DNA from: Bacillales bacterium
Lineage (GTDB): Bacteria > Bacillota > Bacilli > Paenibacillales > CANHCR01
Reading direction: 5' to 3'
Length of the DNA stretch: 64,000 nt
Assembly: GCA_947459205.1 (NCBI GenBank)
Contig: CANHCR010000009.1
Location: forward strand, 798 to 64,797
Part shown: in pieces, positions 32,786 through 63,959 of the stretch
Layout of the letters: the number at the start of each line of letters is the position of its first letter
How positions within the stretch are numbered: position 1 is the first letter of the stretch
Made by a program: the position numbers and the translations under genes
Notes under the pieces: generated by a model
Databases searched by the model: none
What the model was told of the DNA's origin: nothing
The model's input: only the letters and a program-made list of their open reading frames with translations

Positions 32786-32804
32786 TTTAAGAGGTCCCAA
32801 TCGT

Positions 32805-34528: not shown

Positions 34529-34637
34529 TTACATAATTGAGGATTTTAAATGAAATTATTGAATTATAACGATGCTGGTAAATTCTGTACGCATCAGGAA
34601 AATACTTTATCTTTCAATTCAAGGTGGTCTGATATCT

Positions 34638-38616: not shown

Positions 38617-38632
38617 AACAGGTGGTGAAGAG

Positions 38633-41600: not shown

Positions 41601-42184
41601 AGTTTTTAACGGCTCTATCCAAGAATATCGGTGATTATTTTGTCGAACTATACAAAGGATACGACATTAAAATTCAAGTGAATAAAACTGAGATTGATAA
41701 TTTGTTAGAAAAAATACAACGTGTCACATCAACCGAGGTTAGTGCTATTGGAAACATTGATGATGGTGTAAAAGATCAACTTTCCGGAGCGGCAATCGGT
41801 GCAGCAATTGGATTGATTTTGGGACCGCTTGGTGCGCTCGTCGGAGGATTCTTAGGAGGTTTGTTTTTTTCGAAATCAATTGAAGAAATTCAATATGAAG
41901 TGAACCAGGCCTTTTATAACGTGGCTAACGATACGCATATGAAATCTAATCAAATGGTAGAGAATGAAATAAGTCTTCAGAACGATCAAACCATTATGGC
42001 GAAAATCGATGAGGTTTGTGAATCGATTATGACGAAATACATTCAAGCAGTAGATCGTGTGCGTGGTTCATACCGTAACGAGATTAATGAATCTTTGGAA
42101 CGAATTATTCAAACTAAACATCATATCACCGATATTGCTAATAAGAATGTTCTCCTTGAAACTTGGCGCTCGTCGCGAAGGTAG
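38633..42184 (+). CDS. large dynamin-like GTPase 3 with about 560-aa N-terminal extension
   Basis: Central G1 GETSAGKTS, G3 IDTPGFNA, G4 LNKMD. C-proximal paddle LSGAAIGAAIGLILGPLGALVGGFLGGLFF. RBS AGGTGG. Confidence 0.85.
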   Translation: MSNIGKQLVEKVLKGNPLQNETFHFLKDSQIFCQVNNFQEEHSGYFFISNQRLGYVLNDGECFYYFPYSTVYRYESQYTDETEQYVYISILTIHDNQWKWTRFHVLVDDKVFSSIQFVLDYKYFYPAETSKGDIKKIASLINESRFQDAIDVLNELGQNDPLCGIYHALRFQVNSIQGKSEFAQFNLIQMFDTLSILDPEPLIYAIDSLEWDSRIIQWMNQYQENTLEFRIKEYMMAKSRKNPVEIFHAMNQMFAQLEGEYSDFGDILSLKSSLLINYFVGWSHLLDENMVKRTHQLIVDTEKKYIQSNDFAHLSDAEANMVVRRGATLNSYPQSGLFECVRTMYSTINGYPQISEMFNHHQFVSLANHSFDLVSLYDVDQSDTCSFLYNELPAKEKSRLINNIYCLFALLRTEGITEKTKQVFNSMRTKEGIDINIVLSKPQLILETSIYFFSCIEYFILTSQKKLANEYILHYRFKYGEALGSNIHHILKFGKDILDVYEAWANSDIPLLMSAKNFEVFLEIDWLPSLYIKYIQPMIEKHLKRLNENPQQSMHVVRNSILEITSGFQSLAQSNELLQAKKTKINEYVNQIKNRLHSDELRIAVIGETSAGKTSLLNRMFATDLFYVTQEEATGVPTEIRNGIEADAQVLDRHGNVVIRLNDTQKFELNQMIKRTVSNSNDTSLNSQLHAFIKQHTKVDEERSVNVDRVVVTLPIHDLPKNVVIIDTPGFNANQKRSDIALNVINQAHVCIFIIDARNALKSKEMNILRTVREQTGKLFLVLNKMDLIMGDDELDCDDGDSIKQTLDRVNGDLVRFFDSDKFQVCPVTCMPADRVPAEIVEYVNNLSSLKTRVIEHATTNELELITDMAVKESVDLIEEVQTIMYQTNTQKINKTYESIDKLPMDPHIHASFLYEQINDWLFSLEQSYKSKMYAFNLAKIQDAIDTFAAWVSNQTSSDHLTTGAQAKAESILTIAVNEINRNRKQELNKFLTALSKNIGDYFVELYKGYDIKIQVNKTEIDNLLEKIQRVTSTEVSAIGNIDDGVKDQLSGAAIGAAIGLILGPLGALVGGFLGGLFFSKSIEEIQYEVNQAFYNVANDTHMKSNQMVENEISLQNDQTIMAKIDEVCESIMTKYIQAVDRVRGSYRNEINESLERIIQTKHHITDIANKNVLLETWRSSRR

Positions 42185-48213: not shown

Positions 48214-48353
48214 TTTGATTTAGACCACTTAGATTTGAGAAAAGACGAAAACGGTGAGCATGTATATCGTTAGTAACGTAATGGTTAGTTCACATGGCGT
48301 TTGTTTTTGATGAAAGCTACTTTGAATTTTTGTATTTACGGAGGTGTGTTATA

Positions 48354-49838
48354 GTGGGAATGCCGATGAATGCGCATCTGATGCTGAGTTTATTAGGTGA
48401 GACCGAATTGGAGCAGTCAGTAATTGCAAAAGTCCATGGAATGCTGAAATCATTCGATTTATTTGCATTTGTCTTGCATGACAAAATTGAGCATCGACAG
48501 TTTGATTTGAAGTTCGAAGAAATTTATCATGATTTGCATCGTGAGACTAATAAGCATGTATTATTCTTTTCGTTTGTAAATCCTAAAGTTGGATGGGACG
48601 ATTATTTAAAAAATACCGCTTATTTTTCTGAACTTTTATCAACAGATTTTTATAAATTTTTATCTGTTATGGAGACATATTTTTCGCATGACTCCGTTTG
48701 TTCAGTGAACCAAATCGCGCGAGCACTTCGCATTGATTCGGAACAGCTTCCTGTCATTATCCTAACACAAGATTTCAGTTTACAAAGTTTTAAGGTTATC
48801 GAAACGAACGAGAATATTTTTGTTTCTCAATTTAAAGCGATAGAGAAAGCAGTCAAGGATTTTGAAGTCGAGCGCCACCATTACTCGAATGAACAGGGGC
48901 AAGAGCGACTATTTAAGGACATTGATAAATATCTTGCATTGCTTAAATCAGATTCGCTCGACTACAACTCAGAAGTTGTTGGATTTTCCGTCGCAAATGC
49001 TCTTCAACCATTATTCCGCATCATTCGCATGATATGGGATTGTCCATTCGAACAACTTTCTCACGTTGACAAACAAAAAATTATTGAGATTTTTGAGTCG
49101 ATGCGCATTGATTTAGAGCGAATGAAGGTTTTGTTTCTAAAATCGGAAGAGGAGAATATTATCAACGAGTACGAACAAATGTGTAAACAGTTGTCGGATT
49201 GTTTGGCACTTGTAGATAAGCCTGTTCAGCAAATTGTGCCTGAAGAGTTCGCTGATGTGAGCCGATTTATGGAGCGTAACTCTCATGAATGGTTCATCAG
49301 CGGGTTACGCATTTCTAAATATTTAGAAACGGGAATCAACCGAAATACGAATAAGAATACGATTGATTATTCTCCGGCGGCCATTTGCATCGGAAAATCG
49401 TTTGAGAATGAAATAAATTTATCGATTTATCAATGGTTACGGAAAATTGCTGGTGTTAATTTGCCTGATTACTATGATAAGCCTCAACCGAATTTGGGAG
49501 TAGAAGAGACGCAGTTTCAGTTACCATACGGCAACACTTATCAAATTAATGTTAATAGGTCAAGCAAAAATAATCAGAAATTAATTTACCCAGGTCTAGG
49601 AACTATCTATCATTTCGTGAAAGATGATTATTGTCCTGATCAATTTACAGAAAACGATTGGCGCTCATTTCTTCAGGAGTGGGAAACAATTTTTCGTGTT
49701 CGAAATCAAGCAGCCCACACAAAAACTGTGAATAAGTCTGAATTTAACAAACTCGTTCGATCCTTTGAAAGAATTATTGTCCCGAGACTTTACTCCCAGA
49801 TTGTCGCTATGAAAAAAACGTTGCGCGGAGAAACATAA
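48354..49838 (+). CDS. hypothetical protein with C-terminal HEPN-type RNxxAH motif
   Basis: GTG 48354 lies 9 nt after GGAGG (track start 48294). The C-terminus WETIFRVRNQAAHTKTV matches the Rx4-6H (RN..AH) HEPN signature seen in Abi_2-like proteins. Confidence 0.6.
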   Translation: MGMPMNAHLMLSLLGETELEQSVIAKVHGMLKSFDLFAFVLHDKIEHRQFDLKFEEIYHDLHRETNKHVLFFSFVNPKVGWDDYLKNTAYFSELLSTDFYKFLSVMETYFSHDSVCSVNQIARALRIDSEQLPVIILTQDFSLQSFKVIETNENIFVSQFKAIEKAVKDFEVERHHYSNEQGQERLFKDIDKYLALLKSDSLDYNSEVVGFSVANALQPLFRIIRMIWDCPFEQLSHVDKQKIIEIFESMRIDLERMKVLFLKSEEENIINEYEQMCKQLSDCLALVDKPVQQIVPEEFADVSRFMERNSHEWFISGLRISKYLETGINRNTNKNTIDYSPAAICIGKSFENEINLSIYQWLRKIAGVNLPDYYDKPQPNLGVEETQFQLPYGNTYQINVNRSSKNNQKLIYPGLGTIYHFVKDDYCPDQFTENDWRSFLQEWETIFRVRNQAAHTKTVNKSEFNKLVRSFERIIVPRLYSQIVAMKKTLRGET

Positions 49839-50039: not shown

Positions 50040-50999
50040 TTGAAAATTAATACTGATTGGAAACTGAAAGTTTTGCTGACGTTCGGTATTATATTGACTG
50101 TGCTCATAATAGCGGTTCCACTTATTTTTTCAATAATTTCATACGACCCTTATAATACATTGAGGAACGCTGATGCACCTTCTTATTTGGATTATTTAAT
50201 GTTTGTTGGTTCGATAATTGCTGGTTTAGTGGGTCTATTAGGGGTGTTCTCTACGTTATATGTGAGTTACAAACTTTATAAAGTATCCGAAAAAGCTGTT
50301 GAAATTGCAGACCAGGCAACTAATATAGCAGACGACACTCGTAATGCTCAAGTATCGGACAATAAACTCAACTTAGTTAGAGAATATATAACGATGATTA
50401 GAGAACTCGAATCTACAGACAGTCAAATTACAGAAGCTCGTGCATTTCAAGATAAATTGAGTGGAATTATTAACCGTCGATACGAGCACATCTACAGGCA
50501 GGTCAATTCCTTTTTTAACCATGTCATTGATCAGGTTGAAAAGGGGAGTAAATTTCATCATTCAACGACTATTAGAACCAACAAATTTCCAGATGATTTG
50601 TTTGACACTTTTTTAAATAATTCCTTATTGGATAGAAATCAAATTCGACTAATAAATTATTTTTTTCAATTTGAATGGATAAATCCTGCAATACGAACTA
50701 ATCCAGTAATTGATATTGTGAGAATTTCTTCAGAGCACCACCAAATCGAATTTGTAATTAGTTTTTCTAACTTATCAGTTTCCTTCACAGAGAATGAAGT
50801 GAGAAAGGATGTTATTCAAATCAATGAATTTTATGAAAATGACATAATGAGAGATAAAATTGAATTTGTAATGGATTCAATTTCGAATAGAATAAAAAAC
50901 ATAGAGCGAATAAAAGAATTTTACGTAGAAAACTGCAAGGAGCTTCAGAAAATTACTGGTTATAAATTGATTGAATTTACACAAGATGAAAAGGCATAA
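50040..50999 (+). CDS. hypothetical membrane protein (2 N-terminal TM helices, cytoplasmic alpha/beta region)
   Basis: TTG start after GGAGGAG. 319 aa. No motif recognised. Confidence 0.6.
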   Translation: MKINTDWKLKVLLTFGIILTVLIIAVPLIFSIISYDPYNTLRNADAPSYLDYLMFVGSIIAGLVGLLGVFSTLYVSYKLYKVSEKAVEIADQATNIADDTRNAQVSDNKLNLVREYITMIRELESTDSQITEARAFQDKLSGIINRRYEHIYRQVNSFFNHVIDQVEKGSKFHHSTTIRTNKFPDDLFDTFLNNSLLDRNQIRLINYFFQFEWINPAIRTNPVIDIVRISSEHHQIEFVISFSNLSVSFTENEVRKDVIQINEFYENDIMRDKIEFVMDSISNRIKNIERIKEFYVENCKELQKITGYKLIEFTQDEKA

Positions 51000-51388: not shown

Positions 51389-51579
51389 GGAGAAACGGTT
51401 GTTTCTGATTATATACAGCGTGTCAAAATTACAATTGATGATATTATCCATTTTCGCAGTAGCTGATTCATAGTAAAAAATGGCATTATCATGAGTATAA
51501 CCATGTGGAAAGATTTTTGAAAATCTGCCGCATGGTTTTTCTTTTTTTGGCAGGAAAACCATCAAATATGTAGAATTTA
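51389..51579 (+). promoter_or_regulatory. leader-like module, copy 2, directly upstream of the 51619 operon
   Basis: Homologous to 32596-32785. Contains mini-ORF 51491..51520 (MSITMWKDF) overlapping the 5' arm of a terminator. It ends about 40 nt before the RBS GGAGGG of the 51619 gene. Confidence 0.7.
51499..51548 (+). terminator. intrinsic terminator/attenuator inside leader module copy 2
   Basis: Stem aaccatgtgg (51499-51508) / ccgcatggtt (51528-51537, one G-U), inner stem agatttt/aaaatct, then tttttcttttttt. The stem is conserved with copy 1 while the loops differ. Confidence 0.7.
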
Positions 51580-51618
51580 TAAAATAGAATTCTAAATAAT
51601 CGGAGGGTTTGATTTCAT

Positions 51619-52653
51619 ATGTTAAATAAACTACTAGAAAACAAAGAATTAATCAATTATTTAGAAAGTGCAGCATGTCGATTGAAAGTAATCGAATTCG
51701 ACGAAAGTTTTAAGTCAATTTCAGAGGCGGAATTAAATCATTTATTGCAGTTTTTACACCGTTTTTGTCACGAAAGACAGTGGGTGTATGCGATTCGAGA
51801 TGCATCAAAGACGCCGGAGAATGCGATTTCACACTATGTCGATCGTTTAATCGAGCAGTCGAAATCTAGGGATGCAGAAGACAAAATTTTTAAACGATTG
51901 GTTGTTATTACGAATATACCTGACGAGCCTTCAGAAGCACTTGTATCGGCTTTAGATCGTCTATTGGAATCTAGTGATGATATGTATTTGATCGTTTCTT
52001 TCGGCAGATCGATCTATAAGCAAGTCTATAAGATGAGTAAATTCAGGATGTTCCTAGATAAATTGCTTTTGATTTCGAATGCAACAAAAAATACGGAAAT
52101 CAGGAGTGTTGCGTCATCAAACATATTGATAACAAATGTACCGACAACAAACGTGGCATTTCCGCGATATCGTCCGTCAGATGATTTGAAAGCATTTCTG
52201 TACGCAAATTTCCCGCTGATTCATAATGCGAATTTTGACTTGTCTGAAATCAATCATGAGTCAACGATAGTGAAAGCAAAATTAACGGATCACCTTAATC
52301 ATCATCACACAGCGTTCGGTGGCAGCATTGCTCTTAGTTTGTTATTGTCGGCGATGTGCCATTTGGTCAAGATTGTCGATACGTTCCCTGAAGAGTTGTC
52401 ATTTGTTATCGGCAAACAGGAAGTCACATATTACGAAAAAATAAACGAAGACTTTGTTGTTAGAAGTCTTGAGGTTTCCGACCAGGAAAAACGCGATTAT
52501 TTTGCACGCGTAATGGAGCGCGGAAGAGGTGCCATTGTGATTAAATCGCAAATTCGCGACGAAGCCACTGATAAACTGCTGGCAGAGTTTATTGGGAAGT
52601 TCGTATGTATCAAGTGTATGGATGTTGAACCTTCCGACTATGCAATAAGCTAA
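51619..52653 (+). CDS. hypothetical protein, C-terminal hotdog-fold (PaaI/4HBT thioesterase-like) region
   Basis: 344 aa, RBS GGAGGG. C-terminal KAKLTDHLNHHHTAFGGSIALSLLLSAMCH..GAIVIKSQIRDEATDKLLAEFIGKFVCI resembles the N..G.(H/F)GG..a.L.D hotdog pattern. The N-terminal half is unknown. Confidence 0.65.
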   Translation: MLNKLLENKELINYLESAACRLKVIEFDESFKSISEAELNHLLQFLHRFCHERQWVYAIRDASKTPENAISHYVDRLIEQSKSRDAEDKIFKRLVVITNIPDEPSEALVSALDRLLESSDDMYLIVSFGRSIYKQVYKMSKFRMFLDKLLLISNATKNTEIRSVASSNILITNVPTTNVAFPRYRPSDDLKAFLYANFPLIHNANFDLSEINHESTIVKAKLTDHLNHHHTAFGGSIALSLLLSAMCHLVKIVDTFPEELSFVIGKQEVTYYEKINEDFVVRSLEVSDQEKRDYFARVMERGRGAIVIKSQIRDEATDKLLAEFIGKFVCIKCMDVEPSDYAIS

Positions 52654-52676
52654 ATTGAATTGAGGAGTGGTAGAAG

Positions 52677-53294
52677 TTGCGCATATGTGATGTACAAGCG
52701 TTAGTTTTGAATGGGACGTTTATTGTTTGTTGGGATGAGACATTGCTGCGAAACAGTCCGCCACGAGGCAGGCTTACTATTGATGCGAATGCCCTTGTGT
52801 TGCGAGCATACATTGACAATGAGTTTGGTTTAAGTTTTAAGTTTGCGTGTTATGCGATGCTCCAAGATGAACAGGTGACATTGTTTGCCGACGACAGCGG
52901 ACTGGGTTCGTTTACCATTCGTATAGACGAATCGACCGACTATTCTTTTATTTGGCTGCCACATGGTGTTTATAATGAGGATACTTTGAATCTCGATCGG
53001 ATGGTTCGCGAATGTTATCAAGTGAATGATTTTGTTCAATATAGTAGAACGATGGACGTTTTGCATCCGTTGCGAGACAGGATTCAGCCGGATGTGATTC
53101 GTGTTCTACTATCTGCTAAAGATGGTGAGATGGAAGGGGTATGGTGTCGAATTCATGACTACATCAATGAACGAATGGTTGTTAAATTGTTGCATGACAC
53201 GAAGAGAGATTTTGGTCTACGGACAAATGCCCTGTTAAATGTGGATATCGTACAACATGAGGGTCAAGCATATGTTGTTTGGGAACAGGAGTGA
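52677..53294 (+). CDS. hypothetical protein (decayed paralogous fragments lie at 32805-33000 and 61294-61490)
   Basis: 205 aa, TTG start after GAGGAGTGG. The segment RLTIDANALVLRAYIDNEFGLSFKFACY parallels RIRID..NSVALGLYVFSKWGLSFNFACY encoded by the repeat copies. Confidence 0.65.
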   Translation: MRICDVQALVLNGTFIVCWDETLLRNSPPRGRLTIDANALVLRAYIDNEFGLSFKFACYAMLQDEQVTLFADDSGLGSFTIRIDESTDYSFIWLPHGVYNEDTLNLDRMVRECYQVNDFVQYSRTMDVLHPLRDRIQPDVIRVLLSAKDGEMEGVWCRIHDYINERMVVKLLHDTKRDFGLRTNALLNVDIVQHEGQAYVVWEQE

Positions 53295-53398
53295 GCAATA
53301 CAATTTCGGATTTCTGCAGTAGCTGCGATGCAGTAGAGTAATAGGCTAATTATTTTATTTTGGTCAAGAGGAACATGTGACGCGAGAGGAGTGTTCTG

Positions 53399-54673
53399 AT
53401 GAAGTTACAGGAGCAGTATCAAAAGTGGTTGAATGAATTTACTGAGGCGCACGGCAGACCGAGCCCGTATGAATCGGTTGCGACATTTGAATCATTTGAG
53501 GCGCGCTTGAAATTTGCTGATTTGTTGCGCATGTTTGACGAAAGTGGTGAGCAGGATTTTGCGAAAATCGAACAAATTTACTTGTCAATTATTCACGATG
53601 CGGTTGCAAGACAATGTGCAGGTGTAACTTTTACACATGCAGAGATGCATTTGTTGGCGCGCTTGTATATCAAATATGGGCAGTTGTACTGGGAGTGCCG
53701 CAAAGATGAGTCGTTTTTGCTCGATATGTTGGATCGCGCGACTACGTTCATCAAACTCGATAAACGCTTGAATGGGCTTGAAGCGACGGTCGAATATTTT
53801 CGTTTGAAGTTGTTGGCGGATCAGGGACAGCAATTGAGAGCGCTACAGGAAGCAAAGTCGCATCTGACGCTCGTCGGGAAAAAGAGGAAGTCGTTGTGGA
53901 ATCGGGAAAAATACATGTTTCATTTGTTTCTATTTGAATTGTATAGCGACAATCAATGTTATGAGGATGCGGAAGAACATTTGCAGGAAGCGTGCCTTGC
54001 TCTGAACTTGTTGAAAAAAGCGAATGTTGATGACTTTATGCCAGTAGAGCTCATGGGCGTCGTGTCACGCTACATTTTTGAAGTAGAAGATCAAGGGATG
54101 ATGTTTGTACCTGGGGAGGATGGTCCGGAGCGCGACCGCAAAGCAAACTATGCAGCGAACGTGAAGATTCAGGTGGAGAATGCGGCTTACTATGGGGAAG
54201 CGCATTTTGATGAGAAGTACCAGCGTGACGAGCAGATTTTGCTATTGAAAGGCTTTTTGCCGAAGAAGGTTGAAGGCAATGAACTAATTGAAGAAGAGTG
54301 TGCGACGATTGTCGCGGGTGCGCTGAAGGCAGGCGCATTGATTGAGACGGAGTTCGGACTCGAAGTCGTGAATCCGATTGCCGGAAATGTGATGGATATC
54401 GCGGCGTTGATTAGCGGACAAGCAGGCCTAAAGCGACGAGAATATTACAAAATGTGGCGCGATAAGGTGGATGGAGCGAGTCTGTACGAGGACCATTATT
54501 ATGTACGAGGTGAAGGTGAGGATGACCACCTCGATGATGGCAATGATTATGAAGGCATGTCGGCTAAGCAGAAAGAATTATTGGAATATAAATGGAGTAA
54601 ACAGTTTAATCGATCGCGGCGCTTAAACCGAAATATTGCGAAGCGATTGCGCGATTTGTTGGAGTGGAATTGA
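53399..54673 (+). CDS. hypothetical alpha-helical protein
   Basis: 424 aa, RBS GAGAGGAG. Predicted helical/TPR-like N-terminal half. No catalytic motif recognised. Confidence 0.65.
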   Translation: MKLQEQYQKWLNEFTEAHGRPSPYESVATFESFEARLKFADLLRMFDESGEQDFAKIEQIYLSIIHDAVARQCAGVTFTHAEMHLLARLYIKYGQLYWECRKDESFLLDMLDRATTFIKLDKRLNGLEATVEYFRLKLLADQGQQLRALQEAKSHLTLVGKKRKSLWNREKYMFHLFLFELYSDNQCYEDAEEHLQEACLALNLLKKANVDDFMPVELMGVVSRYIFEVEDQGMMFVPGEDGPERDRKANYAANVKIQVENAAYYGEAHFDEKYQRDEQILLLKGFLPKKVEGNELIEEECATIVAGALKAGALIETEFGLEVVNPIAGNVMDIAALISGQAGLKRREYYKMWRDKVDGASLYEDHYYVRGEGEDDHLDDGNDYEGMSAKQKELLEYKWSKQFNRSRRLNRNIAKRLRDLLEWN

Positions 54674-54817
54674 GGTTTCTTTAGAATCAACACGATAAAG
54701 CTAGTGCCTCGTGCCGGTGCGCTTCTACTCATCAAGCGAATGTTTTTCTTTTTTCTAAAATAAAGGAATTAACGCTGTTTTTATTGAATTTATATAACGA
54801 CTAATGGGGGTGAGCAT

Positions 54818-55672
54818 TTGTTGATTGATCAGCTACGCCAAAGTTTTCAAACCAATGGAGCAACTCACCCGCAAACGATGTGCTTCGTTACTCAGTACAT
54901 CTCGCGCATCATGAATGTCGCGCCGAAACAAAAAGACTTTCGTAACCATAATAAATTTCACGACGCGCAATTGATTGCAGATGACCGTCAATTATGTCTG
55001 ATGGTGATTGAAGCCTATATTTGCGATCCGAAATACATTCGAATTTATGAAAATCTCGACCAATATGACGACGAACAGTGGATTCACATGAAACCAAGTG
55101 AGCAGGATCCACACGGAACATTTTATGTGGAGGAGTTACGTGGATGGATTTGGGACTTTGGTCCAGATGATCCGCATGATACAGAAGACATTTTATCCGA
55201 TAATGAAGATTTGGAGGAGTGGATGGACTTTGACACCCTCGTCCACCAACGCATTTCTTACGTTTTGCTGAAACTTACGTTTCATGCGTTTATGGGAAGC
55301 GCAGAACAACCTGCGTTTTTCGAAATGTTGTGGCGAATTATTGCGCGCGCGTTTCAAAAACAAACCGTCTTTGGAGAAGGTACGTGGTCTCTCGAGGGCA
55401 TTATGGAGGAACTTGTTCATTACAAAGCGTTCACATTTATGAGCAATGTGTTATTGCATTTTCGCACAAATAAACTTTTCCCCTACAACTCTTGGATGCG
55501 TTTTGCTGGCATGTTGATACGTGGACAATTTGAAGCATTATCCAAGATGGGCTATCACTCCAAAATTAGTGCGAATGTATTGATCAGAAATGAACTCGAG
55601 CGTGTGGCAAACGAAGAAAACTGGCCGGCGTTGAAGAAGAAATATTTGCTAGCACGAGTTGGTCTGCTGTAG
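54818..55672 (+). CDS. hypothetical protein
   Basis: 284 aa, TTG start after GGGGGTGAG. No motif recognised. Confidence 0.6.
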   Translation: MLIDQLRQSFQTNGATHPQTMCFVTQYISRIMNVAPKQKDFRNHNKFHDAQLIADDRQLCLMVIEAYICDPKYIRIYENLDQYDDEQWIHMKPSEQDPHGTFYVEELRGWIWDFGPDDPHDTEDILSDNEDLEEWMDFDTLVHQRISYVLLKLTFHAFMGSAEQPAFFEMLWRIIARAFQKQTVFGEGTWSLEGIMEELVHYKAFTFMSNVLLHFRTNKLFPYNSWMRFAGMLIRGQFEALSKMGYHSKISANVLIRNELERVANEENWPALKKKYLLARVGLL

Positions 55673-55701
55673 CTGCAATCACGAAAAGGAGTCACACGTC
55701 A

Positions 55702-58137
55702 ATGATGATTCGCATCGATCTAGAGCGAGCTCGCACGGCACGCACGATTGTCGCGCGTTTGCAGCTAGCCATGAAAGAGCACTGGCAAGTCGCCTTTCCT
55801 TTATATGAAGATGCGGAACGGGCACGCCTGCTTTGTTTGCAAAACGGCGGCGGAAACCGTAATTTCACTCACCCGCGTTTGCTCCAGATGTGGCGAGATC
55901 TTCAAAAGGAATCGCAAATGAACGTCACGATTACGTTTTTCGACCTCAATCGGCATTATGCAAAGTTGGTGGAGGCCGCGTTTCGTGCTGATCTAGCAGA
56001 TTTTTTTGCCACGTGTACAGCAGATGAGCGAACTGCGCTTCCTGTTCTGAATGTGTTCAATTACATTTGTCCTAAACATTGGCAGTTGCAAATCGATGGC
56101 GTCCAGTGGGGCTCCGTTTATGCTCGGACCGAGGTGCCTGAGCTGCCGGTGGATGCTTTATTTGCGTGCAATCGTGAAGCGACGATGGAACCGGTGTGGG
56201 CAGATCAGGCGATTGCATGGTTGGAGTATCGTCTGCATCACTGCAACCAGTTGTCTGAAGTTTCGAAAGTCATCAAGTCTACGTTTAGCAAAATCAAGAA
56301 GCGCCTCTATTTGACGTATCAATTGACGGAACTTTATGAGGCGTATCGCGTCATCCTTGACGCTTTGCCAAAGCTTGCACGCGCCGAACGATTGCTGAAG
56401 ATGTATCGCCTCGAATTCGCACAGCTACTCGCCATCCATTTTGAGGAAGAGTGTGCGCAACCGTTAGCAAATTTCAATCAATCCATCGAGACGAATATTT
56501 TAGACATTCAAGTTCTGACTGCGCTACATGAAGAAATTGCGTTTGATGGCTTTGCTTGGCTTGGACGTTGGCGACAAGAAACGCGCACTTCTTCTGTCAT
56601 CCACCAACGAAAATGCAAGTGGTTCGATCAATGCAACGAATTGTTTCAAGCACATGATGGTCAATACAAGCCTTGGATGCGCGAAATCTTCTGTAAATTA
56701 GCGATTGAGTTCCATGCGCGTATGCAACATCGACAAATGGAGCAACTTTTCGAATGGAACAAATCGGTGCGCTATTGGAACGTAATGGACCGCTTAATTG
56801 TGTTTTATGACTGGCATGAACTCGTGACGAGAGATACAAGTTATCTATTCGATGTGGCGGAACGAATGACTTTCATCGGTCGTTTCGAACGTGTCGTGCG
56901 CAACTATTTCCGCCATTTGCGAGAGGATGATATAAGTGAGCAAGATATGGTAGAGCGGTTCCAAAATCAATATATCGTGCCGCGACAGTTCATGCGTTAT
57001 GATACTTGGATTCGCGAAGTCGATAAGCTAATTGGCAACGAGCGTTGGATGAGTCGCTTTTCCGAAGCAACGCAATTGGATTTGCGTTTTGCGGTGCTGA
57101 AGTCACACACTCTATTGTCGTTTTTTCAAACACCACTCGACGAACGTTTTGCAGAATTACAGCAACAAATTGAGCAACGTTACGGAAGAATGGATCGACG
57201 TTGGATTGAATTGATGACAGATATTTATCCGAAGATCGCTGATCGGCTGAAAAGAGCCGATCAATACGGTCTCTTAATATTGAATTCGATTGAAGAGGAT
57301 AATCACGACAATTTGGGTGATCGACTACAAGTTATCGCAACGTTGTTGGAGCGAAAAACTATTTTGCTGAATCAGTCAACAATCCTCAGTTTGGCTCACG
57401 AATATGTAGAAATTGTGGCATTAACGAAAAAGAAAGATTTGACTGGATTATGCAAATTAATCTGGTCGCGCGGCGCCCGAACATTGTACTTTTATTTAAT
57501 GCAACGGCAACTCGAAACATATGCAGCAATGGATAACAAAAATGTTTTGGATGCTATGCGTTTTTATGGAAACTGCATCTTATTAAATGAGGATATTTTC
57601 AGAACCGCAACTCTTTTTACAAAAGCTTCAGATTATTCTTTTGCTTGTTTCCGCATGGTAGAGCAAATTGTAATCCAAAAAGCTACATTTGATATGAGTC
57701 ACTTATCTTTTTTAGCAAAGTTGTTGGTGATGTGTTCACAGTCGAACGATTCACGGACTCCGTCCATTATGCAAAACTTATATGAGTATGTGTTGAACGG
57801 CATCGAAGAGGTACAAAAACAAGATAAATCTTTATCAGAGAAATGGAGAAATCGTTTTTTTAAAATACTCCGCAATAAAGATTGGCACATTTGGGTGGAA
57901 AAACATGGGGGTGAGCAAATGTGGTGGGATTGGTTGGAGTTTTCTTGGTCAGAAACGAAAAATTGGTATTTGAAGACCTTGAAAGATGTGATGATCGTCT
58001 CACGGTTGAACACGCTCAAAAAATTCGAAACACGTTTTTCCTTGGACGCAGGTCGACTTGCCGCTGTCGCCGAGATGCGAGCAAGATGTTATGATCTGCT
58101 CGGTCCGCATCATCCGAAGGTGAAAGGTGGGATGTGA
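55702..58137 (+). CDS. large hypothetical alpha-helical protein (811 aa)
   Basis: RBS AAAGGAG. Trp/Arg-rich and helical. Its size and position upstream of MoxR/vWA recall the large uncharacterised partners (YehM/DUF4132-like) of other MoxR-vWA loci, but no homology could be verified. Confidence 0.7.
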   Translation: MMIRIDLERARTARTIVARLQLAMKEHWQVAFPLYEDAERARLLCLQNGGGNRNFTHPRLLQMWRDLQKESQMNVTITFFDLNRHYAKLVEAAFRADLADFFATCTADERTALPVLNVFNYICPKHWQLQIDGVQWGSVYARTEVPELPVDALFACNREATMEPVWADQAIAWLEYRLHHCNQLSEVSKVIKSTFSKIKKRLYLTYQLTELYEAYRVILDALPKLARAERLLKMYRLEFAQLLAIHFEEECAQPLANFNQSIETNILDIQVLTALHEEIAFDGFAWLGRWRQETRTSSVIHQRKCKWFDQCNELFQAHDGQYKPWMREIFCKLAIEFHARMQHRQMEQLFEWNKSVRYWNVMDRLIVFYDWHELVTRDTSYLFDVAERMTFIGRFERVVRNYFRHLREDDISEQDMVERFQNQYIVPRQFMRYDTWIREVDKLIGNERWMSRFSEATQLDLRFAVLKSHTLLSFFQTPLDERFAELQQQIEQRYGRMDRRWIELMTDIYPKIADRLKRADQYGLLILNSIEEDNHDNLGDRLQVIATLLERKTILLNQSTILSLAHEYVEIVALTKKKDLTGLCKLIWSRGARTLYFYLMQRQLETYAAMDNKNVLDAMRFYGNCILLNEDIFRTATLFTKASDYSFACFRMVEQIVIQKATFDMSHLSFLAKLLVMCSQSNDSRTPSIMQNLYEYVLNGIEEVQKQDKSLSEKWRNRFFKILRNKDWHIWVEKHGGEQMWWDWLEFSWSETKNWYLKTLKDVMIVSRLNTLKKFETRFSLDAGRLAAVAEMRARCYDLLGPHHPKVKGGM

Positions 58138-58744
58138 TTTGAATCGTCAAACGAAAAAGAAATATCGCCTGCGCAATTGGGATGACGTACAAGAGTTTGA
58201 AAAATATGCGCGACTCATCACCGAACTGATGATTTCCTGTTTGCCTCGCGAACAGGTGGAACGTTTGATGCTGGCGCGTCTAAATGAGCGAGATTTTTCG
58301 ACATTGCAATGTTGGTTCAATCACGATAAAGATTTTACGGCGACCGTCGCGGCGTTGCAAACGCAAGATTTCTCGCGCTTTGTGGAACTTACTTTGTTTA
58401 ACGTATTCAGTGAACTAGAGCGGGCACTTGTCGAGTATTTAGATTCGCTCGATTTCACGCCGGAAGTAGAGGTTCAGAACGCGGAAATTGTGGTGCGCAA
58501 TCCGCTTCCGTTTTTGCAATATACGACGTGGCCGATGGAAGATTACTCGTATCTAGTCGTAAAGACAAGCATCGACAAACAGAAGTTTTGGGCAGAGAAA
58601 TGGAGCCGTTCGGAGCAAAAGATTTTACAAAAGGTATATGCGTACAAGAAAAACCGCAGCGGGCGCTATGTGATTGCAAAAGACGAGTTCGCCAAGGCGT
58701 TGATTGAAATGAACGAGTTGTTAGGCAACCCGACTGATCGTTAA
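58127..58744 (+). CDS. hypothetical protein
   Basis: 205 aa. GTG 58127 or TTG 58139 start, overlapping or abutting the stop of the 811-aa gene (translational coupling). Confidence 0.6.
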   Translation: MGCDLNRQTKKKYRLRNWDDVQEFEKYARLITELMISCLPREQVERLMLARLNERDFSTLQCWFNHDKDFTATVAALQTQDFSRFVELTLFNVFSELERALVEYLDSLDFTPEVEVQNAEIVVRNPLPFLQYTTWPMEDYSYLVVKTSIDKQKFWAEKWSRSEQKILQKVYAYKKNRSGRYVIAKDEFAKALIEMNELLGNPTDR

Positions 58745-58756
58745 GGAGGTACCACC

Positions 58757-59827
58757 ATGCATCATGTGACACCAGGAAAATTGTTGGAAATTTTGCTACC
58801 GCTGTATACGAACGCTGCGAAAATGAGTGAAGTGCCGAGCATCATGCTGTGGGGCGAGCCAGGCATCGGCAAGTCGCAGACGATTCGTAAACTGAAAGAT
58901 GAGTTGCATCGTTTGACGGGCAAGGAGGGATTGTTGCGCGACGTGCGCCTCTTGCTCTACAATCCTGTCGATTTGAAAGGCATTCCCGTGCCTGACGAGG
59001 AGCGAGTGCGCTCGAAGTGGTTGCGACCGACGCTGTTTGATTTCGCGGAGGGTGATGAGTTTCTGCATGTGCTCATGCTCGATGAAATATCGGCAGCTCC
59101 GCCATCCGTGCAGGCAGCAGCATATCAGCTGATTTTGGATCGGCAAATCGGCGATCACAAACTGCCAGACAATGTCGTCGTTATCGCAGCGGGCAACCGC
59201 ATCGGTGATGGCGGTGTTGCGTTTCGTATGCCGACGCCCCTTCGCAATCGCATGACCCATTTTAAAATTGAGCAGGATTTAGACGATTGGCTTTCCTACG
59301 CCGAACGCGATCAGCTGCACGAAGCGGTGCGTGGCTTTATTCGTTTCGCAGGTATTAAGATGCTGCTTGATTTCCGCGCCGACAGCGACGAGGAAGCGTT
59401 TCCGACACCGCGCAGCTGGGAGTTCGTCTCGCGCTATTTGAAGTTGTACGGCGATTCACAACTCGCTGAACCTGCGATTGTTGGAACGGTAGGCAAAGGA
59501 GCAGCAGCTTCCTTTATTGAGTATACGAAAGTGTTCGAGGAATTGCCGGATCTCGAGGCGATTATGGCGGGTCAGCAGGTCGAATTGAAATCGACACGCT
59601 TTGACGTGATTTGTGCGCTGTCCATTCGTATCGCTGGCGTGATTCCGACGATGACGAGTGAGCAAGCCCATCATCTCGTCGATTTTTTACTTAAGTCGGC
59701 GATAAAAATCGAACATATTTTCATGTTGATCAGTGATTTGTGGCGCATATCGAGAACACACGAGATGATACGCGGCATGAGCAGTTTGGTGCAATGGCAA
59801 ATGTCACACAAACGATTTTTTAAGTAG
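58757..59827 (+). CDS. MoxR-like AAA+ ATPase (AAA_5)
   Basis: Walker A GEPGIGKSQ, Walker B LMLDEISAA, sensor VIAAGNR and PTPLRNRM. RBS AAGGAGG. Confidence 0.9.
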   Translation: MHHVTPGKLLEILLPLYTNAAKMSEVPSIMLWGEPGIGKSQTIRKLKDELHRLTGKEGLLRDVRLLLYNPVDLKGIPVPDEERVRSKWLRPTLFDFAEGDEFLHVLMLDEISAAPPSVQAAAYQLILDRQIGDHKLPDNVVVIAAGNRIGDGGVAFRMPTPLRNRMTHFKIEQDLDDWLSYAERDQLHEAVRGFIRFAGIKMLLDFRADSDEEAFPTPRSWEFVSRYLKLYGDSQLAEPAIVGTVGKGAAASFIEYTKVFEELPDLEAIMAGQQVELKSTRFDVICALSIRIAGVIPTMTSEQAHHLVDFLLKSAIKIEHIFMLISDLWRISRTHEMIRGMSSLVQWQMSHKRFFK

Positions 59828-59830
59828 GCG

Positions 59831-61081
59831 ATGCGGATGAACGAAGAACAAGAAGCATTAAAGAAATTGGAAAACTCATTGACCGTACTGATTGTCAAGT
59901 TTCCGTTCTTAGGCAGGTTGGCATTGCACTTGCAATTGCGTGCGCGGCCCGATGTGAAGACCGCGGCGACAGATGGGATTCATTATTTCTATGCGCCGCA
60001 GTTTTTTGCCCGACTGAAGCAAACCGAGGTTAATTTTGTCACGATCCATGAAGTGATGCATGTCGTATTCAAACATATTGAACGTTGCCGTGATCGGGAT
60101 TTGGATTTTGTCACGTACAATTTTGCCTCGGATTATGTGATTAATGCCGCCATCCGTGAACTCGATCCGACGCAAGAGATTTTTAAAATGCCGAAACAAG
60201 GCTTGTACAAAAAGAAATATGAGGGTCTGTATACGGAAGAAGTGTACGCGCTTTTGCAGAACAGCGACTCGGGGCAAGAGTTGATTGATCGTTACAAAAA
60301 GCAAAAAGAAGCGCAAGAACGGGGTGTAGGAGAGGGTACGCATCCGATTAAGGGACACGATGTGTGGCGCGAATTGTACGATCGCTTGTCTCCTTCGGAT
60401 ATTGAGCAGTATGAAAGGGAATGGCAGCGTAGAATCGATAGCGAAATCCGACATTTTCCGGAGCGATTTGCGGGTAGCAGTGCGGGGTCGATGTTTCGCC
60501 GGTTTGTGCTTGAGCGTGCGGTGCCGAAAAAAAACTGGCGCCGGTTGCTGCACGAGTTCTTGGCATTTGAAAGCAACGATTTCGGCTTCAATCCGCCGAA
60601 TCCCAATATGATGCACTTATCGCAATTTGGCTACGATGTGATCATGCCGGATTGGAGCGAGCAAGAGCCTGTTTTGCGCAACATCGTGTTCGCCGTCGAT
60701 ACGTCGGGGTCGGTTGATGGCGCACAGTTTCAACTTGTACACAATGAGATCATTGCCTGCCTGCAAATGTTTGGCGGGCGCGTGGATGGCAAGTTGATTT
60801 ACTGTGACGCTCATATTCCTGATGATGGTGTGTACGACATTGTGAACGTGAAAAACGCGCTGCCGGTCGGCGGTGGTGGCACGAGTTTCATCCCCGTATT
60901 CGAGTGGATCGCAGCTAATTGGCAAAATCAGTGTGCGGGCCTCGTGTATTTGACCGATGGGTATGGTGAATTTCCCGATTTTGCTCCGCCGTATCCCGTA
61001 CTTTGGGTGCTGTTGCGAAAGAAGCATGAATGTGAGGTCGAAGTGCCGTTCGGCAGTCGAACCGAGTTAATTATGGATTGA
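59831..61081 (+). CDS. vWA domain protein with N-terminal HExxH metallopeptidase-like domain (DUF2201-type)
   Basis: IHEVMHVVFKH (HExxH) in the N-terminal half. MIDAS VFAVDTSGSVDG and a YLTDGYG-type strand in the C-terminal half. Starts 3 nt after the MoxR stop. Confidence 0.85.
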   Translation: MRMNEEQEALKKLENSLTVLIVKFPFLGRLALHLQLRARPDVKTAATDGIHYFYAPQFFARLKQTEVNFVTIHEVMHVVFKHIERCRDRDLDFVTYNFASDYVINAAIRELDPTQEIFKMPKQGLYKKKYEGLYTEEVYALLQNSDSGQELIDRYKKQKEAQERGVGEGTHPIKGHDVWRELYDRLSPSDIEQYEREWQRRIDSEIRHFPERFAGSSAGSMFRRFVLERAVPKKNWRRLLHEFLAFESNDFGFNPPNPNMMHLSQFGYDVIMPDWSEQEPVLRNIVFAVDTSGSVDGAQFQLVHNEIIACLQMFGGRVDGKLIYCDAHIPDDGVYDIVNVKNALPVGGGGTSFIPVFEWIAANWQNQCAGLVYLTDGYGEFPDFAPPYPVLWVLLRKKHECEVEVPFGSRTELIMD

Positions 61082-61293: not shown

Positions 61294-61490
61294 TGTCAAT
61301 CACCCGTTTTCCATTGCGAATCCGAATCGATATTTTCGTTGATGAACCGAATTCAGTTGCTCTTGGGTTATACGTTTTCAGTAAATGGGGATTAAGTTTT
61401 AATTTCGCTTGCTATCTGCGACACTTCAAGGCGATGAGATGTTTTACAATTTGCTGATACGTTAATATGAGATTTCGTCAAACTTGACGA
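61294..61490 (+). repeat. about 195-bp direct repeat, copy B (near-identical to 32805-33000)
   Basis: See copy A. Carries an open 54-codon frame (MSITRFPLRIRID..GLSFNFACY..) that is frameshifted in copy A. It ends at the start region of the 61484 gene. Confidence 0.9.
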
Positions 61491-63133
61491 TGGGGGTGGA
61501 GGTAATAAAAAACATTTCTATGCAAGACTTCAGCGTTGATGATGTTCCGAATCTAATTCGCTCCGCTGTCGATGAGATTAATTCTACACATAACAGTTTT
61601 GGGCCATACAACCGAGAATCTCTTGTCAAAGTGAAAGGTTGGCTTGAAACCGCATGGCAACTGATGGTTGACAAGGAGTTCTGTGAGACTCATCTGCAAA
61701 TCGCTTGGCCGTTAACGGTTGTATATATTAGGCTGAATTTGCCTCATAGCATTGATGAACTCATACAATACTTGAAAAAACATGATCGTGAAGGTTTGTC
61801 CGAATCTCTGTTAAGCTTGATGAAAACCTCGCAAGCTCTATCAAATTACACTTCAATCTATAAAACATATCATAACGGCTCAGTGGTGTATGAGTTGTCA
61901 AATCCAAAAGCTGTGGCACAACTTATTGCATTGTGTAGTGAACATCGGTATTGGGTGTTAGATATGAGAATTAAGGAACAACCTGTTTTACATGGTCACT
62001 CAATCGTCAAAGGTTTAACTGAGGCAGATGGAGCGATTTTGCTTGAATTAATGACGAATCGACGAGGAGCATCTTCGCAACTCATCATAGAGAGGTTGAA
62101 CGAAGTGCTTGATTCGGTTGTTGAAGCGGAACAGTTTGATCTCCGGATGTCACGACTACGCACACAATTAAGAGATCAATTTTCCGAACTAATCCCTCGA
62201 GATACCTTGTTTATCAATGAGTCTGAACGATATGAATGGAACGTGCCTGGTACGTTCTATGTAGTTGAAACAATTGATTATAAATCTATCAGTACCTCGG
62301 ACTTTTTGAATATCGGGCTAACACCGTATCATGTTTGCGACTTGTCAGATATGACGGAAATGAGTGATTTTGAAGCGTTTGAAAAATTTTGTTTGGCGGT
62401 CGCAGTGGAATACGGTTTATTTGTTGAAAAAGAACCTTACTCGCTTGATCAAGTATTACAACATCTAACGGAGTCGGCAGATGATAAAAAAATTCTTTCA
62501 CTATCTGGGGAGTTAATTAAAGGATTAGTAGTCTGTCAAATCCATCTGAAACATTCTGGTGAGATTGATAAAGTATGGGGTGAAATTGAAGCGATTTTGA
62601 AAAAAAACAAATTGTACAATTTCTATGAAAGGTATAATTATCTTTATCGTGCGTTAGATGAAAGTAGGTCACCGCATCTTTTGTATATAAATGGTGAGCA
62701 ATTTCGTGATGTGACCCTAGATCGTGTATATCGCACAATTGAGGATGCTCATGATCGTGAGGATATGTTAGTCTTGGACTATCGTGTTGCCATTCGACCC
62801 CGAATCCATGCTGCGGGAATAACTTGGGAAGTAACGCCGCTTCAAGGGAAATTATTGTTCGCGCTTATGACAACAACTCGCCCTGTGACAAAGGAGCAAA
62901 TTATCGCTTACGTAGGTGAATCCTTTTCATTCGATCGAATGCTCCAAAATTTAAGACAAAGATTTGAAGACAAGTATCCTAACCATTACAACACTAAGTT
63001 TCTTCGCAGTCCAGATAAAAAAGGATATCGCATTGGACTGGATTGTGAATTTGCTGTCATTGATAGAAAAACATACGAACCTTACACTGGGATCATTAAA
63101 CCATCACCTATAATTCAATTCACTAACATCTAG
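61484..63133 (+). CDS. putative transcriptional regulator with two OmpR/PhoB-type winged-helix (Trans_reg_C-like) domains and no receiver domain
   Basis: Two matching segments: LTEADGAILLELMTNRRGASSQLIIERL..FDLRMSRLRTQLRDQF and VTPLQGKLLFALMTTTRPVTKEQIIAYV..DRMLQNLRQRFEDKY. Start ambiguous (TTG 61484, ATG 61490 or ATG 61520). Confidence 0.65.
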   Translation: MTMGVEVIKNISMQDFSVDDVPNLIRSAVDEINSTHNSFGPYNRESLVKVKGWLETAWQLMVDKEFCETHLQIAWPLTVVYIRLNLPHSIDELIQYLKKHDREGLSESLLSLMKTSQALSNYTSIYKTYHNGSVVYELSNPKAVAQLIALCSEHRYWVLDMRIKEQPVLHGHSIVKGLTEADGAILLELMTNRRGASSQLIIERLNEVLDSVVEAEQFDLRMSRLRTQLRDQFSELIPRDTLFINESERYEWNVPGTFYVVETIDYKSISTSDFLNIGLTPYHVCDLSDMTEMSDFEAFEKFCLAVAVEYGLFVEKEPYSLDQVLQHLTESADDKKILSLSGELIKGLVVCQIHLKHSGEIDKVWGEIEAILKKNKLYNFYERYNYLYRALDESRSPHLLYINGEQFRDVTLDRVYRTIEDAHDREDMLVLDYRVAIRPRIHAAGITWEVTPLQGKLLFALMTTTRPVTKEQIIAYVGESFSFDRMLQNLRQRFEDKYPNHYNTKFLRSPDKKGYRIGLDCEFAVIDRKTYEPYTGIIKPSPIIQFTNI

Positions 63134-63198
63134 TGAAAGCCTGCTCACTTAGGATAAAGATAAGTAATAAACACACTTATTATAAGGGAGCGATTAAG

Positions 63199-63942
63199 AT
63201 GTCGAAAAACAACGATCAGATTAGAGAATTGCTAGCTTTTTATCAAAACAATGGTGACCGTCATGCACTGGAACAAATCATGATGGAACATATGAAACTG
63301 GTTTGTTTTATCGTGAACCAATTTTTGTCCGACAAAGAGACATATGCGAGAACATGGTTTGATGATTTATGCTCGGAAGGAAATCTTGGTTTGATGCATG
63401 CCGCAAATGAATATGATTTGTCTCGTAACACTAAATTCTCTCATTATGCTTATATGAAAATTTTTCGCAATGTGAGTCGAGCGTATCATGAGTGTATAAA
63501 ACAAATGAAAGTCCCGTATTCACATGTGACTCGTCTGAAGCGATACATTGAAGCGGATAGCATGTTTAAGAACGCACTTAATTTGGAAGTATCACATCGT
63601 GAGTTTATAAAATCAGAGATGGGGATTTCGGAATGCCAATACTGGAATCTCAAGCATGCCGCAGCTGCTAGTGACGTTGATTTTTTAGATGACGATTCCT
63701 TTGAAACATCAGCCATAACTCCAACAATTCGTTTAGAAGACGAGGTGATTTATGGAGAGTTTGAAACTTTTTTAAACCATATCTTGTCTCAATTAGATGT
63801 GGAAGTGGGGCAACTGGTCGTACAAAGAATGAACATCGATTTTTCGCGTAAATCGCAACAAAAAGTATTAAGTAGAAAGGAAAAACAAGTCCTTCAACCG
63901 GTGCAGTCACTTATCGGCGAGTGGTTTAACGAATCAAATTAA
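63199..63942 (+). CDS. sigma-70 family RNA polymerase sigma factor (divergent; region 4 not obvious)
   Basis: Region 2 DLCSEGNLGLMHAANEYDLSRNTKFSHYAYMKIFRNVSRA, then MKVPYSHVTRLKRY, then a region-3-like HTH. ATG 63199 follows AAGGGAG (track start 63133). Confidence 0.8.
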   Translation: MSKNNDQIRELLAFYQNNGDRHALEQIMMEHMKLVCFIVNQFLSDKETYARTWFDDLCSEGNLGLMHAANEYDLSRNTKFSHYAYMKIFRNVSRAYHECIKQMKVPYSHVTRLKRYIEADSMFKNALNLEVSHREFIKSEMGISECQYWNLKHAAAASDVDFLDDDSFETSAITPTIRLEDEVIYGEFETFLNHILSQLDVEVGQLVVQRMNIDFSRKSQQKVLSRKEKQVLQPVQSLIGEWFNESN

Positions 63943-63959
63943 TTCATTAGGAGGCACTT

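Follow-up and report, generated by a model that had tools for sequence, protein, structure and literature searches.

A candidate four-gene conflict module built on a phage-typical MoxR ATPase and metallopeptidase-vWA pair in a Bacillales defence island

Which of eight co-oriented genes in a bacterial defence island belong together, and what could they do as a unit? The question is raised by a 64-kb stretch of contig CANHCR010000009.1 of a Bacillales bacterium (GCA_947459205.1; this whole stretch is called the window, and feature coordinates are positions within it), in which eight consecutive open reading frames (ORFs) on the plus strand, g1 to g8, run from 51619 to 61081. A first-pass annotation had taken them for a single operon of largely unrecognisable proteins, closed by a MoxR-type AAA+ ATPase (g7) and by a protein with an HExxH metallopeptidase domain and a von Willebrand factor A (vWA) domain (g8), and had proposed an undescribed nucleoside triphosphate-dependent conflict system. 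An undescribed conflict system is still the best reading, since the genes lie in a defence island, no PADLOC model describes them, no housekeeping client accompanies them and their large component is nearly an orphan. The eight-gene extent, however, is not upheld: the coherent unit is g5-g8, because the closest relative and the paralogous modules have no g1-g4. We propose, with a confidence that falls a little short of even, that g5-g8 (55702-61081) constitute a self-contained host conflict module, most probably anti-phage, that was derived from an enzyme pair typical of phages. The proposal draws on a recurring architecture, the MoxR clade, the mosaic sequence of g5, the exchange of the presumed sensor between modules, the intact motifs of the enzymes and the defence context, all of which are read from sequence.

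The coordinates and lengths of the eight ORFs were all reproduced in the ORF list (Table 1), as were the tight or overlapping distal junctions: g5 and g6 overlap by 11 nucleotides (nt; 58127-58137), and gaps of 12 nt and 3 nt follow between g6 and g7 and between g7 and g8. The gaps between the preceding genes measure 23 nt (g1-g2), 104 nt (g2-g3), 144 nt (g3-g4) and 29 nt (g4-g5). The earlier recognition of g7 and g8 is sustained by profile matches. The Pfam family AAA_3 (MoxR family) matches g7 at 32.3 bits, above its cut-off of 27, and g8 matches DUF2201_N (putative metallopeptidase; E = 5.7e-29) and DUF2201 (VWA-like; E = 6e-16), with the motif residues present. The Walker A (G33..G38-K39-S40) and Walker B (D109-E110) residues of g7 are invariant in the alignment of the module clade. 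In g8, a peptidase motif (H73-E74-x-x-H77) and a metal-ion-dependent adhesion site (MIDAS; D290/S292/S294/T351/D376) were found, which are conserved in an alignment of 64 homologues; both enzymes appear to be catalytically intact. As had been stated, g2-g6 contain no nameable domain, and searches of Pfam, NCBIfam, PADLOC and PHROGs gave no match for any of them at E <= 0.01. No system model of PADLOC-DB v2.0.0 matched g1-g8: g7 gave just weak P-loop matches (DolB, E = 0.0012; IetA, E = 0.028), and g1-g6 and g8 gave none. Searches of PDB sequences with g7 and g8 returned nothing significant, and the only match of g7 among GTDB representative contigs was an irrelevant one of 25% identity.

Table 1. 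Features of the window and of related loci; window features are given as window positions.
Feature	Coordinates	Strand	Description
Repeat X	51389-51578	+	190 nt, 5' of g1; 79% identity over 190 nt to 32596-32784
Terminator-like element	51499-51548	+	intrinsic-terminator-like hairpin (51499-51537) and U-tract
Promoter-like site	51547-51576	+	TTGGCA-18-TAGAAT; GGAGGG ribosome-binding site at 51603-51608, then g1 ATG
g1	51619-52653	+	344 aa; N-terminal half without family; C-terminal YiiD_C hotdog (thioesterase-like); accessory
g2	52677-53294	+	205 aa; small uncharacterised family, possibly DUF2314-related; accessory
g3	53399-54673	+	424 aa; no family match; accessory
g4	54818-55672	+	284 aa; no family match; preceded by 144-nt gap
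g5	55702-58137	+	811 aa; large, mostly alpha-helical (solenoid-like); proposed sensor or scaffold
g5 hypervariable cassette	57226-58011	+	residues 509-770, from pairwise identity to P0002
g6	58127-58744	+	205 aa; small module-specific partner
g7	58757-59827	+	356 aa; MoxR-type AAA+ ATPase; Walker A and B intact
g8	59831-61081	+	416 aa; N-terminal HExxH metallopeptidase domain and C-terminal vWA with complete MIDAS
Repeat Y	61294-61493	+	200 nt, 5' of g9; 97% identity over 200 nt to 32805-33003
g9	61484-63133	+	549 aa; no family match; 3' of module, linkage uncertain
Sigma-70-family gene	63133-63942	+	269 aa as ORF; 247 aa in gene calls on L001
JGI contig 18725			212+595 / 205 / MoxR 356 / vWA 416 (aa); 696-aa gene in the place of g1-g4
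JGI contig 7986			LRAT / 841 / 200 / MoxR 362 / vWA 392 / Peptidase_M28 (aa)
L006	L006:5517-12248		537 (TPR) / 711 / 189 / MoxR 353 / vWA 400 (aa); vWA convergent
Short contigs			187-190-aa gene, then MoxR; partial module versions
SNF2 helicase-MoxR-vWA triplets	L043:6444-12281; L028:6700-12347; L058:6485-12372		overlapping genes; gut contigs of 98-565 kb

The extent of the unit was delimited by comparison with related loci. Three of them (L001-L003) are 99.99-100% identical to the window. The closest related locus, on JGI contig 18725, keeps the order g5/g6/MoxR/vWA, with 97% identity for MoxR and 88% for g6. It belongs to JGI sample 3300059473, whose module instances are known from gene tables (contigs of 2.8-18.7 kb); MoxRs that belong to the module clade number at least six in this sample (P0134, P0004, P0024, P0005, P0020 and P0022), and two modules stand on one of its contigs. 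On JGI contig 7986 the gene order is the same by length, the 200-aa gene being matched to g6 by size alone. A paralogous module, L006, shares the 226.9-kb contig with the window and lies around 35 kb further on (record positions ~82-88.7 kb). When all proteins of the window and of L006 were compared, counterparts were found for g6, g7 and g8 only, and none of g1-g4 recurs with the core in the related loci. In 80 further metagenomic loci with MoxR proteins 38-49% identical to g7, MoxR is followed directly by vWA in about 60, and no ORF resembling g5 or g6 was detected. A septin/MMR_HSR1-type GTPase gene and a MazE gene lie 3' of the L006 module.

The large protein of the proposed module is nearly an orphan. 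A word-indexed search of 5.8e9 proteins with g5 returned g5 itself and one 61%-identical relative, and when 1.84e9 cluster representatives were scanned exhaustively with HMMER, just three relatives emerged, P0002, P0138 and P0139; a metagenome scan with the g5 alignment gave no match. P0002 (595 aa) and P0138 (212 aa) are the two parts of a split g5 orthologue on one JGI contig. P0139 (841 aa) shares 25% identity with g5 over residues 1-334 as well as a C-terminal 'LGPHHP' tail, the middle being unaligned. Along the comparison with P0002, identity amounts to 87% in residues 217-508, falls to 32% in residues 509-770 and returns to 63% in residues 771-811, in a locus where the flanking g6 and MoxR have the high identities given above. 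Residues 509-770 thus seem to diverge at a far higher rate than the remainder of the locus, a pattern that would be expected of a scaffold with a binding surface that is exchanged or selected to change. In the AlphaFold2 model of g5 (predicted local distance difference test, pLDDT, 60.5; predicted template modelling score 0.35), the chain is helical throughout beyond residue ~165 and no P-loop fold is present; the fold search gave generic HEAT/ARM-type alpha-solenoid matches alone, with template modelling scores <= 0.29.

The small partner g6 is homologous to the 189-aa protein that stands ahead of the paralogous MoxR in L006 (E = 1e-16), and its search gathered 5 clusters in all. Its AlphaFold2 model has an overall pLDDT of 66.8, reaching 77-90 in most 10-residue blocks of residues 111-200, and combines a helical N-terminal half with an alpha/beta domain in the C-terminal half. 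No PDB fold matched this model significantly (best E = 0.097), and a scan of 2.9 million viral contigs with the g6 alignment found no match. We regard g6 as a clade-specific fourth conserved component.

In the sister modules the place of g5 is taken by other proteins. The 711-aa protein of L006 shows no similarity to g5, so the large partners are not one family. It contains a Type I methyltransferase-like region (residues 163-360, E = 5e-8) and a Type I specificity region with target recognition domain (residues 529-697, ~1e-10; PDB 8vsr, 7e-4). At the motif IV position SVVPDEY is found instead of the expected NPPF/Y, which suggests that the protein is a non-catalytic recogniser. Four of the 80 more distant loci were inspected, and in three (L043, L028 and L058) the gene of an SNF2 helicase (1080-1169 aa) overlaps the start of MoxR; this arrangement looks like another uncharacterised ternary module. 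Taken together, the sequences suggest that the large partner is interchangeable among modules and often DNA-recognising. Three features are new: a four-gene architecture that is encoded by the host and includes an adaptor of this clade, a near-orphan solenoid with internal hypervariability, and the indication that paralogous modules exchange their recognition subunit.

The enzymatic pair itself has its closest affinities elsewhere. The first-pass annotation had pointed to vWA-MoxR modules as known cores of predicted conflict systems. The pair is not of the published ternary kind; the best matches of g7 and g8 point to a pair typical of phages. Profile phrog_1297 matches g7 at 2.7e-84 over residues 27-332 and phrog_1314 matches g8 at 1.7e-70, and the identity to phage G proteins is 45% for g7 (gp566) and 39% for g8 (gp576). 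Homologues occur in 851 phage records for g7 and in 570 for g8, among them phage G, N4-like phages (one g7 match is annotated gp24) and rV5-like phages (annotated 'MoxR ATPase', ~30% identity). The nearest relatives beyond the module clade lie on phage-G-like jumbo-phage contigs (MoxR 42-46%, vWA 34-41% identity), with the layout MoxR ... vWA ... ~400-aa gene ... NusG ... glucosaminidase. The metallopeptidase-vWA and MoxR pair of jumbo phages was described by Iyer et al. (2021; PMC7824862), with a proposed role in virion assembly, and N4 gp24 and gp25 (vWFA) belong to the core genes of N4-like phages (PMC4193335). A 2025 preprint describes a MoxR ATPase gene of phage Bas54, which may belong to the g7 family, as required to overcome a predicted defence system. 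The phage pair of PHROG 1297/1314 has in common with g7/g8 both proteins and the domain order, an HExxH domain followed by vWA with MIDAS. It differs in that the pair of the window resides in a chromosomal defence island together with g5 and g6, with its MoxR on a separate branch: a rough neighbour-joining tree built from 69 MoxR sequences places the six that are linked to modules in one clade and the phage-G-like ones in another. Because the window starts with chromosomal MatE, SbcD and SbcC genes and continues into the defence island, and since no phage structural or integrase domain was found among the proteins scanned, the pair is, as far as its sequence tells, a homologue of the phage-type pair and not a phage gene pair. 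A side observation concerns the catalytic glutamate of the HExxH motif, which is replaced by Q or L in 10 of the 64 g8 homologues (loci L004-L093), with both histidines and the MIDAS retained; in some MoxR/vWA pairs the vWA protein may thus lack proteolytic activity.

This affinity feeds the strongest rival explanation, in which a captured or resident copy of the phage pair sits in the island as mobile cargo and works for a mobile element or an erstwhile phage, either in the assembly or processing of that element's own proteins or in counter-defence, by remodelling or cleaving defence proteins of the host. It would account for the very strong PHROG matches, the position of the nearest non-module relatives on jumbo-phage contigs, the core status of gp24/gp25 in N4-like phages and the proposed part of the jumbo-phage pairs in virion assembly, and it can draw on the Bas54 preprint, on the MoxR homologues of rV5-like phages, on the gut SNF2-MoxR-vWA loci, whose neighbours include a sigma factor gene and one for a large serine recombinase, and on the GC content at third codon positions (GC3) of g7-g8, which is 0.56-0.59 against 0.35-0.47 in the neighbouring genes. 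We nevertheless consider it unlikely, as the module-linked MoxRs branch apart from the phage ones, g5 and g6 are absent from the phage records and from the 80 related loci (g6 also from the viral contigs), the neighbours are host-type defence systems, and rV5 has no vWA gene adjacent to its MoxR. Moreover, the ~40 window proteins scanned include no detected integrase, terminase, capsid, portal or tail protein. A prophage remnant was likewise rejected as the identity of the window, no phage structural or integration gene having been found.

If g5-g8 act as a host conflict module, the following mechanism can be envisaged. The scaffold g5, as sensor, would use its variable cassette to bind a target that stems from the invader or has been modified by it, and g6 would serve as a small adaptor bridging g5 to the enzymatic pair. 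The MIDAS of the g8 vWA domain would grip a peptide of g5 or of the bound target, and the hexameric MoxR ring of g7 would remodel the complex with the energy of ATP, after which the HExxH domain of g8 could cut an invader protein, a host protein or an effector (precursor). In the sister modules, DNA recognition would instead come from a methylase-specificity-like fusion or an SNF2 helicase. A more far-reaching hypothesis, which we hold to be unlikely, is that bacteria domesticated a core chaperone-protease pair of phages, of the N4 gp24/gp25 and phage G type, as a modular immune device with interchangeable recognition subunits (a hypervariable alpha-solenoid, a Type I methylase-specificity fusion that seems to be inactivated, or an SNF2 helicase), to which the present clade adds the adaptor g6. 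The host copy may in that case work by mimicking or intercepting the MoxR/vWA machinery of the phage or the proteins on which it acts, and would then be a defence both made from and directed against a phage apparatus for assembly or counter-defence.

Several observations weigh against a host conflict module. The MoxR/vWA pair is not intrinsically a defence device, since it belongs to the core genes of N4-like phages and occurs commonly in jumbo phages, for which a part in virion assembly was proposed. The L006 module adjoins an alpha-amylase gene and ordinary metabolic genes, with no clear defence island, and no known defence model of PADLOC matches. Only a handful of module instances were found, mostly from two samples and several as gene tables alone. 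The mosaic of g5 is seen in one pairwise comparison and could reflect a single recombination event instead of sustained diversifying selection. Finally, the structure models obtained for g5 and g6 are of low to moderate confidence, and their fold searches gave no informative match.

A role of MoxR-vWA pairs as conflict-system switches has published precedent (Kaur et al. 2020, PMC7159879). The ternary systems described there resemble the window in combining a MoxR ATPase with a peptidase-bearing vWA co-chaperone and a large, diversifying proposed sensor, and further in the linked MoxR-vWA core, the several paralogues per genome and the extra alpha-helical proteins. They differ in that their C-terminal effectors are fused to vWA, whereas g8 has an N-terminal HExxH domain, and in that they have no fourth conserved small component such as g6. 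The third component of these systems is VMAP, iSTAND, FtsH or a beta-propeller, and a derivation from CoxD/CoxE has been proposed (PMC7159879; PMC12839542). None of these four was matched by g1-g6 in Pfam or NCBIfam at E <= 0.1, the 2025 Pfam being assumed to hold VMAP and YiiD_C in g1 being the sole match; g8 has no propeller, and nothing is added to its vWA domain except DUF2201_N at the N-terminus. The pair g7/g8 would thus not belong to the CoxD/CoxE-derived lineage, from which it is set apart by its best matches to phage PHROGs. IetAS and BrxL in BREX offer a likeness by analogy, in that an AAA+-type ATPase and a protease would operate with specificity, methylase-like or helicase partners; they differ in belonging to other protease and ATPase families, the similarity to IetA (E = 0.028) and IteA (E = 0.0094) being confined to the P-loop level, over ~30 residues each.

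A second alternative, which does not exclude a conflict role, is that g1-g8 form one obligate eight-component system expressed from one regulated leader; it bears directly on the sequences upstream of g1. The first-pass annotation had described there a leader containing a terminator. The hairpin is present, with a folding energy of -23.1 kcal/mol (z = -2.9), equalled by 1 of 200 shuffles, and its stem is retained in the copy near 32.7 kb. A simpler reading of this leader is a terminator ahead of a promoter-like site. Repeat X holds both elements. The promoter-like site agrees with 10 of 12 consensus positions; it is a consensus match only, in a region with 40 such sites against 37.6 expected. 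Neither the window in full nor the leader alone matched any Rfam family, so that a riboswitch or attenuator reading of the leader finds no support. The simplest reading of the sequence is that the hairpin insulates the operon, as a terminator ahead of the operon's own promoter, rather than forming a regulated leader.

Decayed paralogous pieces of the operon had also been noted elsewhere in the island, and they were recovered: a copy of the leader lies at 32596-32784, and the second repeat, Y, carries a decayed g2-like fragment (GLSF[K/N]FACY; tblastn E = 0.002 and nucleotide alignment). The copies of X and Y adjoin at 32596-33003, before the ORF at 33131, and stand separately before g1 and g9. 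This side-by-side arrangement suggests a past in which the leader and g2 moved as one piece, and it is most simply read as a relic of an earlier copy of the 5' end of the operon. The repeats could be common promoter or terminator cassettes, on which the sigma factor of the island might act, or relics of a duplicated operon 5' end.

The adjoining copies speak for an eight-gene system, as do the common strand of all eight genes, the single promoter-like site before g1 and the gaps of 3-144 nt, in which no convincing terminator was found, so that co-transcription of g1-g8 is possible. Such a system is distinctly unlikely all the same, given the absence of g1-g4 from the closest locus and from the paralogous modules. 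The sole homologue found for g2 has unrelated neighbours, among them neither MoxR nor vWA, and the g3-g4 gap, which contains a T-tract and a weak hairpin and folds no better than shuffles (z = 0.7), could hold an internal promoter. Furthermore, GC3 climbs from 0.39 in g1 to 0.59 in g7 before dropping to 0.35 in g9, a course that fits a mosaic assembly.

The last rival, a housekeeping chaperone that matures an enzyme or inserts a metal cofactor in the manner of CoxD/CoxE, NorQ/NorD, CbbQ/CbbO, RavA/ViaA or the chelatases, is highly improbable: although such systems likewise set a MoxR-clade ATPase beside a vWA gene, MoxR-vWA pairs are best known in these roles (PMC7159879) and g7 and g8 look intact, no candidate client enzyme occurs in the window or in the related loci, for which reason a chelatase or cofactor-maturation role was rejected, the vWA protein bears a peptidase domain in a phage-typical family, the partners either are orphans that diverge fast or serve as DNA-recognition and helicase proteins, a genome can contain several paralogues, and the setting is a defence island.

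The preferred reading, a host conflict module formed by g5-g8, would have consequences beyond this locus. To our knowledge, MoxR-vWA pairs have been predicted as bacterial immune switches and hardly tested, and we know of no function for the metallopeptidase-vWA/MoxR pair of N4-like and jumbo phages. A compact, host-encoded version provides a tractable handle on what the pair acts upon and on whether host and phage copies oppose each other. If it proves protective, the module would represent a defence family absent from PADLOC-DB v2.0.0 and an example of the exchange of a chaperone-protease machine, from phage to host or from host to phage.

The setting agrees with the defence island described initially. 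Defence genes begin at ~12.7 kb, nearly all on one strand, and extend over ~40 kb upstream of the module. They encode an Mrr-type nuclease, an HKD+Snf2 candidate system with DUF4391, AbiLi and RloB, a Type III restriction-modification system (methylase, 7e-244; restriction enzyme, 1e-242), an RE_endonuc protein, an EVE-HNH protein and a PDC-S37/Mokosh-like helicase-nuclease. In the region 33131-42184, three Eleos-like dynamin GTPases match LeoA/LeoBC models (1e-15 to 4e-30). Of the McrBC and HEPN genes that had been placed upstream, McrBC is present, McrB (AAA_5 and Mrr_N) and McrC lying directly upstream; the HEPN assignment has no family match behind it, just an R-x4-H motif being visible. 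The ORF concerned (48294-49838, 514 aa) matches neither Pfam nor PADLOC and carries this motif (RNQAAH) near its C-terminus, which fits the HEPN guess. The ORF at 50040-50999 (319 aa, GC content 0.32) has N-terminal hydrophobic segments and no Pfam match. Before the three dynamins, of which the third has 1183 aa with a long N-terminal extension, stands an ORF of 374 aa (33131-34255) with an HEYYH motif and no family match.

The genes g1-g4 look like lineage-specific accessory cargo, possibly effectors or a separate cassette. The hotdog-like C-terminus attributed to g1 is supported by Pfam YiiD_C (residues 189-331, 1e-14) and by PDB 8ayv (2.9e-5). For g2, the one homologue found is located at L013 2797-3420(-), with 30% identity (tblastn 2e-9, phmmer 9.5e-14); this homologue matches DUF2314 at E = 0.0014, below the cut-off. 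L013 is MT837245.1, a 7.3-kb gut contig deposited as 'UNVERIFIED Bacteriophage sp.', which looks bacterial rather than viral because it has no evident phage genes; it carries no MoxR or vWA gene. Other genes of L013 encode ADP-ribosylglycohydrolase-like, GNAT-like and NUDIX-like proteins, as read from their translations, and a PLD-helicase-DUF3427 protein, according to Pfam. The g3 protein is a singleton at 90% clustering. Comparison of g3, g4 and g9 with PDB sequences gave nothing significant, g9 had no match in Pfam, NCBIfam, PADLOC or PHROGs, and tblastn of g1-g4 against plasmids and phages found the YiiD_C domain and the one g2 homologue, nothing more.

Downstream of g9, the sigma-70-family protein (Sigma70_r2, 2.7e-7; MzaA-like, 3.7e-9; phrog_351, 7e-20) is a possible local regulator. 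It is followed on the same strand by a Peptidase_M28 gene, which starts at about window position 63959, and then, past the right end of the window, by one gene with DUF697 and PLD domains (MkoB-like, 1.4e-22); the two genes together span L001:18258-20865. The M28 gene may be a recurrent accessory of the module, since Peptidase_M28 is also encoded directly 3' of vWA on JGI contig 7986; together with the recurring LRAT gene and g1, g2, g3 and g4, it may provide variable effectors.

Near the gut SNF2 triplets, genes for a large serine recombinase, a sigma-70 factor, a calcineurin-like phosphoesterase, a proteasome-subunit-like protein and SpoVK-like AAA proteins were observed. Transcription-related genes recur near MoxR/vWA pairs more widely (window 63133-63942; L058:5670-6293; L008:15307-16498; JGI contig 18725). 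They comprise a sigma-70-like gene in both the window and one gut locus, Sigma70_r4 and NusG in phage-G-like loci, a faint RNA_pol_Rpb1_1 match on JGI contig 18725 and an AAA protein with an RNA polymerase alpha C-terminal domain in L058, and a link of the MoxR/vWA pair with transcription is possible.

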